Below are positions 19,316 to 31,128 of a stretch of DNA of 58,787 nt, piece by piece. The position numbers were made by a program, and so were the translations under genes. The notes beneath the pieces are model-generated. The model saw nothing but the letters and a program-made list of their open reading frames with translations, was not told the DNA's origin and ran no database searches. This DNA is from Acidobacteriota bacterium (GTDB lineage: Bacteria > Acidobacteriota > UBA4820 > DSQY01). The stretch covers positions 1-58,787 of the forward strand of contig JBMFSH010000016.1 of NCBI GenBank assembly GCA_049967655.1. The letters are read 5' to 3'. Each line of letters starts with the position of its first letter. Position 1 is the first letter of the stretch.

Positions 19316-20524
19316 GTGGACGGGCGGGCTGAGGGGCATCCGGCCCCCGGCCAAAACGGGATCCTGTTCCTTCCCCTTCCCGGCACGGCGCGCCTGCATC
19401 CCCTCTTCGGCGTACGCGCCTTCGGCCTCTCGCCGCGCCAGGCGTCCGTGCTCGAAGAGGCGGGGAAGAGTGTGGCCTCCCTGGGCCCGCCTCTCTGGAT
19501 CGAAGCGCTCTCCTCGCCCGCGGGCGGCCTCACGATTCACGGCCCGCTCCACGTTTTTTTCCACCTCCTCGATTCGCTCGGCCAATGGGAGGAGATGGGC
19601 GAAGTGGCCTCGGCCCTGGCCGACACCCTGGACCGGAGCACCCGCCGGCCGACGCTGATGGTTCGCGGTCGTAACCTGTTCGAAAGGAGCCCCCACCTCC
19701 TTATGGGCGTGGTCAATGTGACCCCCGACTCCTTTTCCGACGGCGGAAGATTTTTGGCGCCCGAGGCGGCCGTGGCGCACGCGCTCCGCCTGGCCCAGGA
19801 GGGCGCCGACCTCCTGGACCTTGGCGCCGAATCGAGCCGCCCGGGTAGCGATCCCGTCCCCGCTGAGGAGGAGCTCCGGCGGCTGGTGCCTCCTCTTCGG
19901 GAGCTCCACCGCCTCCTGCCCGACCTGCCCATTTCGGTGGACACCACGAAAGCGGTCGTGGCTGAGGCGGCTCTGGAGGCCGGAGCGGACCTCGTGAACG
20001 ATATATCGGCGGGATGCCTCGATGCCTCCATGGTCCCCCTTTGCGCCCGGCGCCGGGTGCCGCTCATCCTCATGCACATGCGCGGCCTGCCCAAGACCAT
20101 GCAGGAGTCCCCCCACTATGATGACCCCGTGGCGGAGGTGACCCTCGAACTCCGGAAGAGGGTGCGGACGGCCGAGGCGGCGGGGCTGGGCGCGGGAACC
20201 CTGGTGGTGGACCCTGGATTCGGGTTCGCCAAGCGCCCCGAGGACAACCTGGCGCTCGTCGCGGAGCTGGAGGGGCTGCGGGCGCTCGGCTACCCGGTCC
20301 TGCTGGGCGCCTCCCGCAAGAGCACCATCGGCGCCCTCACGGGGGCCGACGCGGCCGACCGCCTGCCGGGCACGCTGGCCCTCCACACCGCCGCCCTGCT
20401 CCACGGGGCGAGCATCCTCCGCGTCCATGACGTGAAGGAGCACCGGCAGGCCCTCGCCTGTGCGGCGGCCTTGATGGGAAAGCGGTCCGAAGAACGGGCC
20501 GCACCCCATCGAGAGGGGCGATGA
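19316..20524 (+). CDS. folP: Dihydropteroate synthase with N-terminal extension
   Basis: MGVVNVTPDSFSDGG, GAESSRPG, DPGFGFAK, GASRKS, RVHDV. Confidence 0.93.
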   Translation: MDGRAEGHPAPGQNGILFLPLPGTARLHPLFGVRAFGLSPRQASVLEEAGKSVASLGPPLWIEALSSPAGGLTIHGPLHVFFHLLDSLGQWEEMGEVASALADTLDRSTRRPTLMVRGRNLFERSPHLLMGVVNVTPDSFSDGGRFLAPEAAVAHALRLAQEGADLLDLGAESSRPGSDPVPAEEELRRLVPPLRELHRLLPDLPISVDTTKAVVAEAALEAGADLVNDISAGCLDASMVPLCARRRVPLILMHMRGLPKTMQESPHYDDPVAEVTLELRKRVRTAEAAGLGAGTLVVDPGFGFAKRPEDNLALVAELEGLRALGYPVLLGASRKSTIGALTGADAADRLPGTLALHTAALLHGASILRVHDVKEHRQALACAAALMGKRSEERAAPHREGR

Positions 20525-20541
20525 AGAGCCTCATTTGAATC

Positions 20542-20690
20542 GGCGCGCTCAACGCCTTCGGCAGGGCCTCGGCCGGCCCCCCTCCGCGCTCCTCCTCGCT
20601 CCGCTCGTCCTCACTGCTCCCCCCTGCCCTCACGAAGGCAGCCCTCCGGATGGGGGACCTCCTCGTCCCCCAGACCCCCTCGTCTCGCCC
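20542..20690 (+). repeat. GC-rich palindromic element, homologous to the insert at 24569-24742 (reverse complement)
   Basis: Shared ordered blocks GGCGCGCTC, GGGCCTCGGYCGGCCC, CCTCGCTCCGCTCG, CTGCTCCYCCCTGCCCTC and a GGGGG..ACCTCCYCGT..CCCCC hairpin. Confidence 0.75.
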
Positions 20691-20711
20691 CTCCCCTCTG
20701 CGCCCTCCCGT

Positions 20712-21932
20712 TCAGCGCCTGGGAGGGAAGAGGGCAACGCCTTCGCACCTGGGCGGTGGCGCCATCCCCAGGAGGGCGCAGACGGTCGGGGCGATGTCGG
20801 TGGCGTGGACGTCGCCGAGGAGCTTGCCGGCGGGGATGCTGGGGCCCTCGGCGTAGAAGATGCCGTCCATCTGGGGAAGCTCCGAGGGTGGCCAGCCGTG
20901 CATGCCGCGGGGGAGTGACTTCTCCCCCTTGCGATTGAAGCTCGAAAAGTAGGCCCCCGGCGGGGCCACCAGGACGAAGTCGCCCTCCCGGCCGCTCTCC
21001 GCGTAGCCCCAGCGGGAGGGGAGAGTGCTCCGGGTGTAGACGCGCACATCGCCGGGCAGCCGGCTGAGCCCCGCCGCCACCTGCCGCCGCTGGGCCTCCG
21101 TCTTCACGTAGACGTTGCAGACCGGGCCGGAGGTGGCGATGTAGGGGTAGAAGCCGCGCTTGGGAATCACCTTCACCACGTCGATGACGCGGGAGACGGC
21201 GGCCATGCCGTGGTCGGAGACGATGATGAGGTCCACGGGAACCGCCGGACCGAGCGCGCGTATGCCCGCCCTCAGGTGCGCCAGGAAAGCGTCGGCGCGC
21301 CGCATGGCCGCGTGCACCGCGGGCCCGTCGGGCCCCTCCGCGTGGCCGGGGCCGTCGGCGCCGTGGGTCCAGGCCATGACAAGGCGAGGTCTCTGCCCCT
21401 GCGGTCTCCGGAGCAGACCCAGAATCCAGGCCGAGGTCCCCGCGTCCGAAGCACCCTCCTCGAAGGGCCTGTAGAAGCTCGCCTGGACGCCGCGCCACGG
21501 ACCCTTTGAAACGGGCCACCCCGACACGGCGGCGCCCAGGCCGGCCTCCTCGGCCAGGGCCCACAGGGGCGGCGCGAGGAGCCATCCGGCGTCGTCCGAG
21601 TCCGAGAAGCGCCGGCCCGCCTCGCGATCCAGAAAGCTGTTGGCGATGACGCCGTGGCGGCCCGGCAGGCACCCCGTGGCCAGGGTCGAGTGGCTGGCGA
21701 AGGTGAGGGAGGGGAAGGGAGGAATCAGCCGCGCGGCGCTCGCGCCGTCCCTGGCCATGGCGGCAAAGGCGCTCAGGTGGTCCCTCTCCGGGTAGTCCCA
21801 GCGCACCCCGTCCATGGAGATCAGGACCACCGTGGGCCGGAGCGTCGGCGCCGCCGCCCGCATCGCCAGCAGCCCCGCCAGGAGCAGGGCCAGGGCGCCC
21901 AGGGCCGCGAGCAGGCATCGAGATCGCCGCAT
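20712..21932 (-). CDS. Exported nucleotide pyrophosphatase/phosphodiesterase (alkaline phosphatase superfamily)
   Basis: LISMDGVRWDY, PFPSLTFASHSTLATG, DGPGH, IIVSDHGM, GMHGW; TAATG overlap with the upstream gene. Confidence 0.9.
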   Translation of the reverse strand: MRRSRCLLAALGALALLLAGLLAMRAAAPTLRPTVVLISMDGVRWDYPERDHLSAFAAMARDGASAARLIPPFPSLTFASHSTLATGCLPGRHGVIANSFLDREAGRRFSDSDDAGWLLAPPLWALAEEAGLGAAVSGWPVSKGPWRGVQASFYRPFEEGASDAGTSAWILGLLRRPQGQRPRLVMAWTHGADGPGHAEGPDGPAVHAAMRRADAFLAHLRAGIRALGPAVPVDLIIVSDHGMAAVSRVIDVVKVIPKRGFYPYIATSGPVCNVYVKTEAQRRQVAAGLSRLPGDVRVYTRSTLPSRWGYAESGREGDFVLVAPPGAYFSSFNRKGEKSLPRGMHGWPPSELPQMDGIFYAEGPSIPAGKLLGDVHATDIAPTVCALLGMAPPPRCEGVALFPPRR

Positions 21933-24562
21933 TACGCCTCCTCCAAGGCCCGGCGCGACGCCTCCAGCGCGAAGGCCAGCTCCTCGCTCCGGCTCTGCAC
22001 CCGGCCCTCGGCCTTGGCGGCGCGGGTCTCCTCCAGGGCACGGGAGATGGCCGGGGAGGGGGGAATGCCCGCGCGGATCAGATCGTGGCCCGAGATGGCC
22101 AGCTTCAGGAAGCGGTCCTTGACCAGAAAGTCCCGCACCCGGGCCTGCCGCGACGGCGGCTGAATCTTGGCGAGCAGGAAGAGCACCCATGGGAGAGGTT
22201 GCCCCTTCAGGACCTTGTAGGCACGGCCTCTTCCGCAGTCCTCCTCGGAGGTGAGCACCCGGATGGCGTGCCAGGTGAGGGAACGGTAGCGGGCGAGCGC
22301 GTCCCGGGTCTGCTGCGAGAAGGGGTAGTGGTCCCGGAAGGCGGCCAGTTCCGCGTTCGACAGCCGCTCCGTGAGCGCCATCAGGTAGACGCAGGGCCGG
22401 TCCACGGGCTCGTCTGGGAACTGCGTGTCGAAGAAACCGAGGGTCTGCTGGACGCGGTAGAGCGTCTCCAGCACCTTGGGGGTGAGCTTGAGGGCGGGCC
22501 AAAAGACCTCCAGCAGACCGTAGGTTTCCATGGCTTTGAGCCCCTCCACGGCGTTGGGGCCCGCCAGGAGCTGCTGGACCTCGGCGAGCACCCGCTTGGG
22601 GGAGAGGTGGCGGAAGAGATGCTGCTTGCGCGTGGCCTCGATGAGCTGCTCCGTCTCGGCCGGCAACGTGAAGCCAAGGCGGACGGAGAATCGGACGGCC
22701 CGGAAGGCGCGGGTGGGGTCTTCCACAAAAGAGAGGCCGTGGAGCACCCGGATACGCCCAGCCTTCAAGTCCCGGACACCGCCGAAGAGGTCCAGTATCT
22801 CCCCGAATCGGTCCGGGGACAGGTAGAGGGCGAGCGTGTTGATGGTGAAGTCGCGCCGATAGAGGTCCTGGTAGAGCGCCGCGTGGGCCACCGTGGGCAG
22901 GGCCGCCGGCGTCTCGTAGTATTCGGCTCGCGCCGTGGCGAAATCCCAGTGGCCCCCGCCCGGGCGGATCCAGAGGGCCGTGCCGAAGGCGCGGTGGGCC
23001 CTGATCCGTCCGCCCTCCCGCCGGGCCCACGCTTCGGCCAGCTCCACGGCGTCCCCTTCGACGACGAAGTCCACGTCCTGCACGGGCCGACCCAGGAGGA
23101 GGTCCCTCACGGCGCCGCCCACGAGCAGGCAGGGAGTGCCCGCGGCCTCCGCCAGGGCACCCAGGGACTTCAGCCTTCCGAGCTCCTCGGGCGGGAAGGC
23201 TGCGCGCATGAGATGGCTGACCTCCTTGGCCGACGGTTGGCCTCCCGGCCGATGGACCATGAGCGTCTTGTCTTGGTGGTAGAGGGATTTGAAGAGGCTC
23301 ATGCGGGAGACGAGCCCCTCCACGTGGTCCAGGTCGCGCCCGAACAGGGCGATGCGCCAGTTGTTCTCCAGCATGAGCCGGCGGACCTCCTCCGCCGCCA
23401 CCTCGGGTGGAAAGAAGGGCGGGGGCGAAATCAGGAAGTCCGAGACGGGCCTCTCCGCCAGGCCGTGCTGGATGGCCCCGTCCACCTCCTGCCGCGTCAC
23501 GACCCCCACGAGCCTGCCCTCCTTGAGGACCGGCAGGGCGTTGACCCGATGGCGGTTCATCTCGCGGAAGGCCTCGCGCGTGGTCGCCGTGGCCTCCAAC
23601 CGGTGATACTCCCGGGTCATGATGTCGCTCGCCCTCAGGCCCACGGGATGGACAAAGGTCAGCTCATCCAGGAGCAGTGCCCTCACCTCCGCGGGCGTCT
23701 TGTCCCTGATCACGGCGGAGGCCGCGGAGGGGTGTCCGCCTCCGCCGAAGACCGACAGGACCTGGGCGGCATTCACGTGCGGTGTCTTGGAGCGCGCGAT
23801 GATGTGCACCCGGTTTTCCAGGTAGGCCAGCAGGAAAAGGGCCTGCATCCCCTCCATGGCCAAAATCTCGTGGACGAGGACCGACAGGTCGGGGACGTAG
23901 TCCTCCAGGGCCAGGGTGGTCAGGTGCACCGTGACTCCCCCCACAGCTACCGACTCCAGGTGCTCAAACATGGCCGCCAGGAGGCGCATCTGTGCCTCCG
24001 TAAACCCCCGGTGCAGGGTCTGCTGGACGGCGCCGAGGTCGCCTCCCCATTCCAGGCATTGCAGGACGGCCTTGAAATCCGAAGGGCGCGTGGTGGGAAA
24101 GGAGAGGAAACCCGTGTCCTCGTAAATGGCCAGCAGAAAGAGGGTCGCCTCGAAGGGGGTCGGTTCGACCGAAGCCTCCAGGAGGCACTTCACCATGACC
24201 GTGGTGCAGGCCCCCGCCTCCTCCACCACGTGCCGCTCCCCCTTCAGGTCTCCGGCCCCGGGATGGTGGTCGAAGACCTCCGTGGGGGTGGGCGGGGTCC
24301 GCCGGAGCAGATCCACGAGCGGCCCCAGCCGTTCGCCGGATGAGACGTCCACGCAGACCAGCCGCTCCACCTGGTCATGGTCCAGCCCCTTCAGCGGCTG
24401 GATCTCGGGGAGCCGGTCCCGGTTCTCCTCCAGCCAGCGGCGGACCAGCGGCTCCGCCGCACCCGAGAAGACGAGCCGCGCCCCCGGATACAGCAGGGAC
24501 GCCGCCACCATCGAGGCGAGGGCATCGAAATCCGCGTTCGTGTGCGTCGTGATCACGATCAT
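21932..24562 (-). CDS. tRNA nucleotidyltransferase with DHH-DHHA1 and CBS domains (A-adding/CCA-adding type)
   Basis: THTNADFDA, DHH, YEDTG, GGGGHPSAAS, CBS pair, VGGAVRDLLL..DVD, DLYRRDFTIN, EDPTR. Confidence 0.93.
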   Translation of the reverse strand: MIVITTHTNADFDALASMVAASLLYPGARLVFSGAAEPLVRRWLEENRDRLPEIQPLKGLDHDQVERLVCVDVSSGERLGPLVDLLRRTPPTPTEVFDHHPGAGDLKGERHVVEEAGACTTVMVKCLLEASVEPTPFEATLFLLAIYEDTGFLSFPTTRPSDFKAVLQCLEWGGDLGAVQQTLHRGFTEAQMRLLAAMFEHLESVAVGGVTVHLTTLALEDYVPDLSVLVHEILAMEGMQALFLLAYLENRVHIIARSKTPHVNAAQVLSVFGGGGHPSAASAVIRDKTPAEVRALLLDELTFVHPVGLRASDIMTREYHRLEATATTREAFREMNRHRVNALPVLKEGRLVGVVTRQEVDGAIQHGLAERPVSDFLISPPPFFPPEVAAEEVRRLMLENNWRIALFGRDLDHVEGLVSRMSLFKSLYHQDKTLMVHRPGGQPSAKEVSHLMRAAFPPEELGRLKSLGALAEAAGTPCLLVGGAVRDLLLGRPVQDVDFVVEGDAVELAEAWARREGGRIRAHRAFGTALWIRPGGGHWDFATARAEYYETPAALPTVAHAALYQDLYRRDFTINTLALYLSPDRFGEILDLFGGVRDLKAGRIRVLHGLSFVEDPTRAFRAVRFSVRLGFTLPAETEQLIEATRKQHLFRHLSPKRVLAEVQQLLAGPNAVEGLKAMETYGLLEVFWPALKLTPKVLETLYRVQQTLGFFDTQFPDEPVDRPCVYLMALTERLSNAELAAFRDHYPFSQQTRDALARYRSLTWHAIRVLTSEEDCGRGRAYKVLKGQPLPWVLFLLAKIQPPSRQARVRDFLVKDRFLKLAISGHDLIRAGIPPSPAISRALEETRAAKAEGRVQSRSEELAFALEASRRALEEA

Positions 24563-24813
24563 GGCGCCCCTCGTTCAAGCCACGGTGGCGGCGCGGCGAA
24601 GGGGTGCGGGGGAACGGGGAGGTTCCCCCGCGGCGAAGGGCGCCTTTCGCGAGGGCAGGGAGGAGCAGCGGCGCCGAGCGGAGCGAGGCGGAGCGCCGAG
24701 GAGGGCCGACCGAGGCCCGCCTCGGGGAGCGCGCCCCCGCGCGACGCCGCCACCATCGAGGCGAGGGCATCGAAATCCGCGTTCGTGTGCGTCGTGATCA
24801 CGATCATGGCGCC
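24498..24813. repeat. Perfect 71-bp direct repeat (24498-24568 and 24743-24813) of the nucleotidyltransferase gene start, flanking a 174-bp palindromic element
   Basis: Both copies read GACGCCGCCACCATCGAGGCG...GATCACGATCATGGCGCC. Confidence 0.92.
24559..24807 (-). CDS. Leader ORF (82 aa): first 22 residues duplicate the downstream enzyme's N-terminus; stop overlaps its ATG
   Basis: MIVITTHTNADFDALASMVAAS then element-derived codons; ATGA overlap at 24559-24562; TGcTAGACT 6 nt upstream of its ATG. Confidence 0.5.
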   Translation of the reverse strand: MIVITTHTNADFDALASMVAASRGGALPEAGLGRPSSALRLAPLGAAAPPCPRERRPSPRGNLPVPPHPFAAPPPWLERGAP

Positions 24814-24857
24814 AGTCTAGCAACAGCGCCTGGAATTCACCACAGCGACCCCGCCGC

Positions 24858-24878
24858 TACTTTTTACTTTTTACTTTC
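24858..24878. repeat. Three tandem TACTTTT heptamers just downstream of the hisC stop
   Basis: TACTTTT TACTTTT TACTTTC. Confidence 0.6.
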
Positions 24879-24880
24879 GA

Positions 24881-25981
24881 TCAGCGCCCCAGGACCTTCT
24901 TGGCGGCCTCCAGGAAGCGTTCATTGCCGTAATGGTGGAAGACGGAAACCCTCAGGGAGTTGGGATAGCCGTTGTTCGCCATGGGCCGGATGATGACCCC
25001 CTCCCTCAACATGGCCTGAAAGAACTGCTCGCCGGGCATGGGCACGTCGATGAGAACGAAGTTGGCCTGCGAGGGGACGACGGGGATCCCCGCGTCCTGG
25101 CAGCCCTGCGTGAGGTAGGGCCTCTCCACGGCGTTGAGCGCCACCCCCTTGGCCACGAATTCCTGGTCCTCCAGGGCCGCCATGGCCGCCACCTGGGCCA
25201 CCGAGCTGGTGTTGAAGGGTGAGCGGACCTTGTGGAGCGTGGCGATCACCTCTGCGTGGGCGAAGCCGTAGCCCACGCGCAGCCCTGCCAGGCCGTAGGC
25301 CTTGCTGAAGGTTCCCAGGACCATCAGGTTGGGGAAGCGGGCCAGGAGGGGCTGGACGGTGGCGTAGTCGGGGGCGTCGGCGTACTCCTTGTAGGCCTCG
25401 TCCACGATTACAAGGACGTAGCCCGGGACCCGTTCGAGAAAAGCTTCGAGCTCCGTAAAGGAGGTGTAACGGCCCGTGGGGTTGATGGGGTTGTCCAGGA
25501 TGATGAGCCGGGTGTTCTCGTCCACCGCATCCAAGAGCGCATCGAGATCGTGGTTGCGCTCCCGCATGGGCACGGCCTTGATGGGAGCGTCCATGATCTG
25601 ACAGGCGATGGGGTAGAGGGCGAAGGAGCCGAAGCTGAAGACGGCATTGGCCTGCCGGTTCAGGTAGGCCCGGGCGGACATCTCCACGATTTCCACCGAG
25701 CCATTGCCCAGGATGACCTGCTGGGCGGGGACCCCGTAGTGCCGACCAAGGGCCTGGCAGAGGTAGAAGCCGCTGCCCTCGGGGTAGATGTGGAGCTCGC
25801 CGAGCATGTTCCGGACGGCCTCCACGGCCTTCGGCGAGGGACCCAGCGGGTTCTCGTTGGAGGCCATCTTGAGGCTGCTCGTAATGCCCAGCTCGCGCTC
25901 CACCTCCTGGGTCGGCTTGCCGGGAACGTAGGGACTGATCTTCCGGATGTTGTGCGGAACGGGTACCTGCATGTCCATCAT
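24881..25981 (-). CDS. hisC: Histidinol-phosphate aminotransferase
   Basis: PYVPGKP, KMASNENPLGPS, NPINPTG, DEAY, TFSKAYGLAGLRVGY. Confidence 0.93.
   Translation of the reverse strand: MMDMQVPVPHNIRKISPYVPGKPTQEVERELGITSSLKMASNENPLGPSPKAVEAVRNMLGELHIYPEGSGFYLCQALGRHYGVPAQQVILGNGSVEIVEMSARAYLNRQANAVFSFGSFALYPIACQIMDAPIKAVPMRERNHDLDALLDAVDENTRLIILDNPINPTGRYTSFTELEAFLERVPGYVLVIVDEAYKEYADAPDYATVQPLLARFPNLMVLGTFSKAYGLAGLRVGYGFAHAEVIATLHKVRSPFNTSSVAQVAAMAALEDQEFVAKGVALNAVERPYLTQGCQDAGIPVVPSQANFVLIDVPMPGEQFFQAMLREGVIIRPMANNGYPNSLRVSVFHHYGNERFLEAAKKVLGR

Positions 25982-29133: not shown

Positions 29134-31128
<1,995 letters not shown>

Follow-up and report, generated by a model that had tools for sequence, protein, structure and literature searches.

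A gene-less repeat family with probable copy-specific guides, one copy of which lies within the duplicated start of a putative tRNA nucleotidyltransferase gene in an Acidobacteriota bacterium

How can a repeat insert at the start of a housekeeping gene and leave the gene whole? This question is raised by a 58,787 nt stretch of DNA from an Acidobacteriota bacterium (contig JBMFSH010000016.1 of assembly GCA_049967655.1; the whole stretch is referred to as the window), in which the 5′ end of a gene for a putative tRNA nucleotidyltransferase occurs twice, around a short element. The analysis showed that this element belongs to a gene-less, multi-hairpin repeat family, and that its conserved end is joined to a site matched by a short guide of its own. 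This copy-specific guide, absent from the original prediction on this DNA, is the main feature of the element. With somewhat better than even confidence, we propose that the family spreads as folded single-stranded DNA (ssDNA) directed by the guide.

A repeat search of the window confirmed the exact 71-nt direct repeat of the gene start (24498–24568 and 24743–24813, 245 nt apart) that had been described in the original prediction. The first 3 nt of this repeat (GAC) are the element's own conserved end, which matches the gene by microhomology; the repeat therefore stands as an exact one, while the duplication proper is 68 bp rather than 71 bp (24501–24568 and 24746–24813), and the insert is 177 nt (24569–24745). 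A single palindromic element had also been proposed, which did not hold, as the insert consists of several hairpins, and the 174 nt originally assigned to it fold no better than shuffled sequences (minus strand, DNA, z −1.2); the apparent terminal inverted repeat is the pairing of the guide with duplicated host sequence. In a comparison set of 25 family genomes (the source genome, G000, and 24 others), the duplication and the intervening element were present in all four genomes of the genus, and a single start in the other 21. An assembly artefact was ruled out, since all three other genomes of the genus carry the duplication. The parts of the locus are as follows.

21932..24562, minus strand: host gene, 876 aa, with DHH-DHHA1-CBS-PolyA_pol domains (domain search); its best NCBIfam model is A-adding tRNA nucleotidyltransferase, at a score under the curated cut-off
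24498..24500, plus strand: GAC microhomology between the gene and the 3′ end of the element (repeat comparison)
24501..24568, plus strand: in-gene copy of the 68-bp duplication, with the working gene start and 6 nt upstream of it
24501..24509, plus strand: guide target within the gene, GCCGCCACC
24569..24583, plus strand: 15-nt locus-specific spacer; the metagenome locus L206 has a different one
24584..24592, plus strand: copy-specific guide GGTGGCGGC, 9 nt, complementary to 24501–24509 and 24746–24754
24595..24745, plus strand: conserved folded core of 151 nt, bounded by the G[GT]CGA anchor and the GCGAC end
24606..24631, plus strand: hairpin 1, with a 10-bp stem and a GGNNAG loop
24696..24725, plus strand: hairpin 4, with a 12-bp stem and a GGCNGA-type loop
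24746..24813, plus strand: second 68-bp copy, joined to the GAC end of the element, which stays with the original promoter region

The guide corresponds to bases −3 to about −11 before the anchor, and is complementary to the bases with which the duplicated segment opens, as GGTGGCGGC is to GCCGCCACC in the window copy. Guides are 7–11 nt long, keep a fixed register, and vary between loci and copies, being longer at tRNAs. The pairing was assayed on 148 unique hits, among which 76 had both ends and enough flanking sequence; these fell into 22 locus clusters, each entered by one representative. With the first 8 nt after the GAC end, the guides formed 5.64 Watson–Crick pairs per locus vs. 3.74 upon permutation, and none of 100,000 permutations reached the score, while register shifts by 1–3 nt lowered the pairing to 2.2–3.2 pairs. 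A perfect 8-mer target was present within 200 nt upstream in 8 of the 22 representatives, compared with 2.4% for the guides of other loci. Statistically, the guide rule is firm.

In a set of 50 non-redundant copies, 21 had a guide that fitted the in-gene copy of the duplication better and 2 had one that fitted the downstream copy better, with 27 ties. In detail, the guide tracks two synonymous gene changes at lpdA of G016, and a C-to-G change in the target at a thiolase gene. Mutations of the downstream copies were concentrated in the guide-bound 9 nt, affecting 18 of 42 copies vs. 8, 9, and 5 in the later intervals; indels, together with the anchoring on the distal part, inflate this figure. 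In G000, the two copies of the duplication at the radical-SAM locus have in common a change that mismatches the guide, indicating that the duplication was renewed without the guide being rewritten.

The family is defined by a core of about 110–155 nt, which starts at the G[GT]CGA anchor and finishes with a GCGAY end. A family profile search of G000 gave 22 matches, 13 of them near full length, and the family was present in 23 of the 24 other genomes of this Acidobacteriota family. A covariance model matched 10 of 11 family genomes and gave a weak match in 1 of 140 genomes of other families, and 5 short weak matches were found among 36 genomes of distant relatives. Scans of collections added up to 44 genome loci and 48 metagenome loci, and the viral contigs scanned gave no match. 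Rfam searched on window positions 20000–25200 gave no match, its three hits being at chance level and far under the gathering scores. In an alignment of 20 cores, 97% of the cells pair, compared with 42–59% when the partners were slid, with the structure derived from the same alignment; 14 of 29 pairs vary on both sides, that is, the helices covary. No internal open reading frame was seen in the 148 unique hits. Loops of the c-GNA-g type occurred in 23 of 45 parsed variable hairpins, and mini-hairpins of this type are described as far more stable as DNA than as RNA in the available text of PMC13037366. Near-identical cores carry different guides, with tree supports of 100/98 and 100/99. In the literature, of which mainly the open-access part was covered, no description of the repeat family was found, and it is apparently undescribed.

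Further structural variation was observed in the family. In the core alignment (columns 65–69 with 111–115), the purines that precede hairpin 3 covary with the 3′ strand of hairpin 4, which would fit an alternative pairing or simply the existence of two subfamilies. One element sits inside hairpin 4 of another in the L033:2015 region (G001), at L061:621 (G003), and at L197; the 5′ part of the nested element is a short target-loop-guide hairpin, and the unit length is equal in L033 and L061. A larger multi-hairpin composite repeat occurs in G000 (C3:119700–120100, C8:103040–103270, C28:10570–10950 and 30700–31040, C32:29750–29984, C17:15800–16050), and at L060, L070, L071, L073, and L077. It has a conserved CGTAC-N-GTACG hairpin and TTTTGGACAGCC-like ends, and holds one element subfamily in which the 6-nt guide is constant; it could be a MITE (a miniature transposable element with inverted repeats) that ferries this subfamily.

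Where the copies sit was then determined. The 13 near-full-length copies of G000 comprised 9 after stop codons (of fumarase-like, asd, GGDEF, radical SAM, lpdA, protoporphyrinogen oxidase, aldo-keto reductase, thiolase, and phosphodiesterase genes), 1 after tRNA-Asp, 2 in the composite repeat, and 1 before a start, namely that of the nucleotidyltransferase gene of the window. An association of the element with start codons, raised in the original prediction, was thus not borne out. Other copies are indeed flanked by duplications, as had been envisaged, while the duplicated parts are mostly gene 3′ ends or tRNA ends rather than gene starts. Long flanking repeats were found at 7 of the 13 copies; they begin at or within a few bases of the GAC end and match a site 50–158 nt before the anchor. 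The 3′ junction is precise, GCGAY being followed by the target, and the other end is variable. In every case, most of the host gene is on the side of the anchor; copies that follow stops are accordingly sense, and those that precede starts antisense. Antisense copies were found at two gene starts, that of the window gene and that of an aldo-keto-reductase-like gene (L177). Tandem units occurred at L004, L058, L010, L030, L076, and L256. The window holds a second copy as well.

20545..20699, minus strand: second, decayed family copy behind a phosphodiesterase gene, with no long duplication left

In different lineages, the same host genes were found targeted at different positions with different guides, as observed for holB (L214, L225, L021), fumarase-like (L232, L154), and thiolase (L175, L187, L195) genes. 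Copies targeting tRNAs (tRNA-Gly at L079, L083, L007, L093, and L196; tRNA-Asp at L237 and L086; tRNA-Leu at L024) have a longer complementarity across the T arm, and a common GGAG tail after GAC that departs from the tRNA sequence; judging from these sequences, their true junction may lie 5–7 nt further in.

The original prediction suggested comparing related genomes for an empty site, and empty counterparts were found, including one in G022. At the aldo-keto reductase gene, G001 and G003 have empty alleles. In G000, the downstream copy is the G001/G003 gene end and continues into G001-type flanking sequence, while the in-gene copy has 37 identical nt followed by a different, mostly synonymous end common with G002. 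This comparison indicated that the element brought a foreign gene end, the proximal part of which would have been copied from the recipient or homogenised later, and such a foreign in-gene copy suggests homing. At the nucleotidyltransferase gene, the element of L206 occupies the same nucleotide; its spacer is different, and its core belongs to a different clade. G022 is the empty counterpart of L206, at 92–93% identity. Moreover, in a 7098 nt contig of the X8 run with about 92% identity to the window, exactly 245 nt are skipped. At lpdA in G003 and G014, remnants of the guide were found with no core.

Codon 22 of the nucleotidyltransferase gene (24493–24503) is Ser in G000, G001, G003, and the X8 empty allele, and Ala in G002, G022, and L206. 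In the X8 empty allele it is TCG, which matches the element end; the Ser codon may be the scar of an older excision.

The consequence of the insertion for the host gene lies on the minus strand, where the leftover gene start opens a leader frame.

24559..24807, minus strand: leader frame of 82 codons, whose TGA overlaps the main ATG
24567..24572, minus strand: Shine–Dalgarno (SD)-like GAGGGG at a distance of 4 nt upstream of the main ATG; G002 has AAGGAGG
24814..24822, minus strand: extended −10-like TGcTAGACT, 6 nt before the upstream ATG, identical in all four genus genomes; putative promoter

These features agreed with the original prediction: the leader is stop-free and ends in ATGA, and both motifs are present at the places given. 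That the element is small and non-autonomous and that the gene start was regenerated was supported likewise. A promoter scan of the upstream start, which needs a −35 box as well, found no promoter. Most of the SD-like motif belongs to the spacer, which is 15 nt long and locus-specific, rather than to the conserved core. In the genus alleles, the leader is open over 82, 81, 133, and 82 codons with a TGA overlapping the main ATG, and the other two frames have stops; between G003 and G000, the leader region differs by 8 small indels with a net of −3. The leader of L206, 78 codons at a spacing of 233 nt, ends in ATGA too, so that this ending was found in 5 of 5 filled alleles of the gene, and the leader at the unrelated aldo-keto-reductase-like start (L177), 98 codons, has the same ending. 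The ATG-to-ATG spacings of 245, 245, 242, 398, and 233 are all 2 mod 3, suggesting that the coupling frame has been kept, as predicted.

An open frame as such is unremarkable, as 52–64 of 76 cores are stop-free per frame. The signal is the frame itself, for which four largely independent configurations would agree in about 1 of 81 cases if frames were random. The +153 nested insert counts for little as evidence of frame selection, the unit length being equal at a non-coding locus. In 7 of 21 empty alleles, the ATG is preceded at exactly 6 nt by TACAAT or GATAAT, as it is by TAGACT in the window, so the original gene start was probably leaderless. The ATGA frames and the SD-like motif at the main start make translational coupling likely, that is, the frame of the leftover gene start would hand ribosomes on to the intact gene. 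Coupling would be a consequence of where the window copy survived, not the purpose of the family. Between hisC and the promoter, a short tandem run (ACTTTTT) was observed at 24859–24877, the unit number of which varies across the four genus genomes.

How might such copies arise? In the proposed scheme, the guide would pair with its target on the same-sense strand, and a putative enzyme that leaves a 3′-OH, either of HUH type or a host type IA topoisomerase, which we take to be a candidate host enzyme of the same polarity, would nick the target at its 5′ edge. A host polymerase would then extend the 3′-OH and recopy recipient sequence for some tens of bases, before homology lets synthesis move over to a donor with gene end, spacer, guide, and core. 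The new strand would be cleaved behind GAC and linked to the target that had been displaced. The outcome would be a long duplication of variable length and a whole gene, and the same reaction in cis would add tandem units. Sites near a gene terminus alone would be tolerated, leaving copies sense behind stops and antisense before starts. At the window site, the leftover start would keep the promoter, and the surviving alleles would be those with a leader ending in ATGA. The scheme accounts for the precise junction, the variable length, the recipient-type proximal and donor-type distal sequence, and the tandem units. A nick-extend-recut-transfer scheme in cis has been proposed for the amplification of bacterial interspersed mosaic elements (BIMEs) in the available part of PMC3333891. 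We infer the chemistry of the insertion, which is likely that of DNA, given the c-GNA-g loops, the antisense copies, and the presence of reverse transcriptase (RT) in 8 of 25 genomes.

Several observations weigh against guide-directed movement as folded ssDNA. No enzyme was found beside any element copy, as judged from 114 enzyme loci: an adjoining copy was absent at 41 Y1/RT loci (30 of them Y1 loci, 0 of 30), at 51 GIY-YIG/Y2/IS110/DDE/HNH loci, and at 22 further loci around weak Y1 hits. The class 3 Y1 protein was not found in the 25 family genomes in a search without a positive control. GNRA loops occur on a second hairpin in 55 of 70 copies, RNA folding scores equal DNA scores, and the plus-strand RNA folding z is −4.15. 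The guide pairing is weak or 1–2 nt off-register in several copies, 8 of the 22 representatives having fewer than 6 of 8 pairs; the locus clusters are imperfect, some merging several loci, and the genomes are related. Lastly, the X8 empty allele is a contig, with a small chance of being a collapsed repeat.

As for the enzymes themselves, Y1 occurred in 23, RT in 8, Y2 in 1, GIY-YIG in 24, and IS110 in 9 of the 25 genomes; in five genomes tested, DDE_Tnp_1 and HNH occurred in four each and TnpB in none. The sole GIY-YIG frame in G000 is 601 aa, UvrC-sized. The class 3 motif was present in 3 of 151 genomes, none from this family. At L390:757–1320 (G078), a 187-aa HUH-type protein lies between two arrays of class 3 hairpins resembling repetitive extragenic palindromic (REP) sequences; it was the query of the class 3 search above, which found nothing in the 25 family genomes. 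Many stand-alone Y1 HUH genes with short GGGGTCA or GGGACA inverted ends were observed at L097–L125, unrelated to the element; they fit the TIRYT/subclass 2.1 description in the available text of PMC6006769.

The same guide logic could operate on RNA. The core would then be a small ribozyme or an RT substrate; its 3′ end would become attached to the site that the guide has bound and be copied into DNA, while homology would resolve the 5′ end. Besides the GNRA loops and the plus-strand folding already mentioned, this would fit the co-orientation of nearly all copies with the upstream gene, and the AC or AT end of the element, which we take to resemble group II introns. We regard it as unlikely, since RT is confined to 8 of 25 genomes and never lies beside the element, Rfam gave no match, the antisense copies at gene starts carry foreign spacers, and GNA loops are of DNA type. 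Somewhat less probable still is that the complementary stretch is a by-product of fold-back synthesis at insertion, with no later role, and that the duplications are recombination scars. Near-identical cores with different guides are what this explanation would expect, as are hits whose positions in fumC-like, holB, and thiolase genes differ between lineages. It is at odds with the renewed duplication and unrewritten guide of the radical-SAM locus, with the use of the same nucleotide of the nucleotidyltransferase gene by two different cores, and with the excess of downstream mutations in the guide-bound 9 nt, inflated as that figure is.

The original prediction took the length of 71 bp as an argument against a DDE transposase, which fails, as IS1549 and IS1634 give repeats of 8–514 bp according to the available part of PMC2266710. 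A MITE moved by such an enzyme with long target duplications of variable length would find DDE_Tnp_1 genes in four of the five genomes tested. We consider it highly improbable, because the element has one fixed end only and no constant terminal inverted repeats, the guide is left unexplained, and a foreign gene end can set the two copies apart, which is impossible for a staggered cut and largely refutes this explanation at the aldo-keto reductase. Two more candidates were rejected. Cutting of a pre-existing cruciform on both sides, the mode of IS1630-like elements, is at variance with the absence of the guide from the downstream copy and from the empty allele of G022. A change like that made by diversity-generating retroelements was rejected as the differences between copies are not A-specific.

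If guide-directed movement of folded ssDNA is true, it would be a new site-specific mobility route with a different 7–11-base cis guide at each locus, no encoded protein, and the target gene kept whole. It would explain gene-end swaps between species, and how an often-leaderless gene gained an SD and a coupled leader; it would also offer a possible short targeting module, the guide of which could be rewritten to aim the insertion. The longer programmable guides known are RNA (bridge RNA, omega RNA). Known DNA-guided insertion, that of IS608, uses one fixed four-base guide, as far as the available text of PMC5934647 goes. We advance tentatively, with slightly less than even credence, that the family is a new class of programmable, protein-less mobile DNA, with a cis DNA guide per copy, homing between species by replacing a gene end or start, and cut and joined by a host enzyme or by its own folded strand.

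Among known systems, REP sequences and BIMEs are likewise intergenic hairpin repeats with tandem amplification (PMC3333891; PMC6006769; both in the parts available). The REP foot GT[AG]G or CnGA 5′ of a short hairpin was absent, as the anchor is G[GT]CGA and CnGA occurs in the loop only. No element copies flanked a tnpA-REP gene at 30 Y1 loci and 22 further loci, and neither a class 3 repeat nor, in 25 genomes, a class 3 protein was found in the family. The guide and tail of tRNA-type copies resemble the two arms of a class 3 REP hairpin, while class 3 REP repeats, unlike the element, have no long flank duplications in the text available (PMC6006769). IS91/ISCR elements share one fixed and one loose end, captured adjacent host DNA, and duplications beside the element; the present element is about a tenth of their size, and no guide is described for them in the available part of PMC3575428. 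The Y2 transposase of IS91/ISCR (PF04986) was found in 1 of 25 genomes, and not beside the element. With respect to bridge RNA, the DEDD recombinase of IS110 (PF01548) was found in 9 of 25 genomes, and none of 12 loci examined lay beside the element.

Long duplications of variable length are made by IS1630, and by IS1549/IS1634 elements. The latter resemble the element in this, and differ in having terminal inverted repeats and DDE transposases, with no guide or foreign gene end in the available text of PMC2266710. The element has no constant terminal inverted repeats, and its two repeats are not both derived from the recipient, as the foreign end at the aldo-keto reductase demonstrates.

When integrative elements restore a tRNA or protein gene at its 3′ end, they bring a spare, often synonymous end and leave the original behind. 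The element is like them in that respect, and differs in having no integrase and no shared att core, and in hitting many unrelated targets per genome, gene starts too. IS200/IS605 elements are not known to make a target duplication, whereas long repeats flank 7 of the 13 G000 copies; their fixed 4–5-nt guide and target are also unlike the guides here, which differ by locus. A cognate TnpA/TnpB element with the same ends was not found in these genomes, which are incomplete metagenome-assembled genomes, and an IS200-like TnpA occurred in G024 alone and not beside the element. The element shares with IS200/IS605 a guide that pairs with its target next to a subterminal hairpin. In IS608, the guide lies at the 5′ foot of the hairpin and pairs with the target in strand-specific folded DNA, as in the element; IS608 has a fixed tetranucleotide guide, precise insertion, and its own TnpA (PMC5934647, in the part available), while the element has a 7–11 nt guide per copy that pairs with the bases after the junction, and duplicates from tens of bases to more than 100 bp. 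By analogy, and within what the available text of PMC5934647 describes, the element appears to work most like the guide-hairpin end of IS608 combined with the gene-end restoration of integrative elements.

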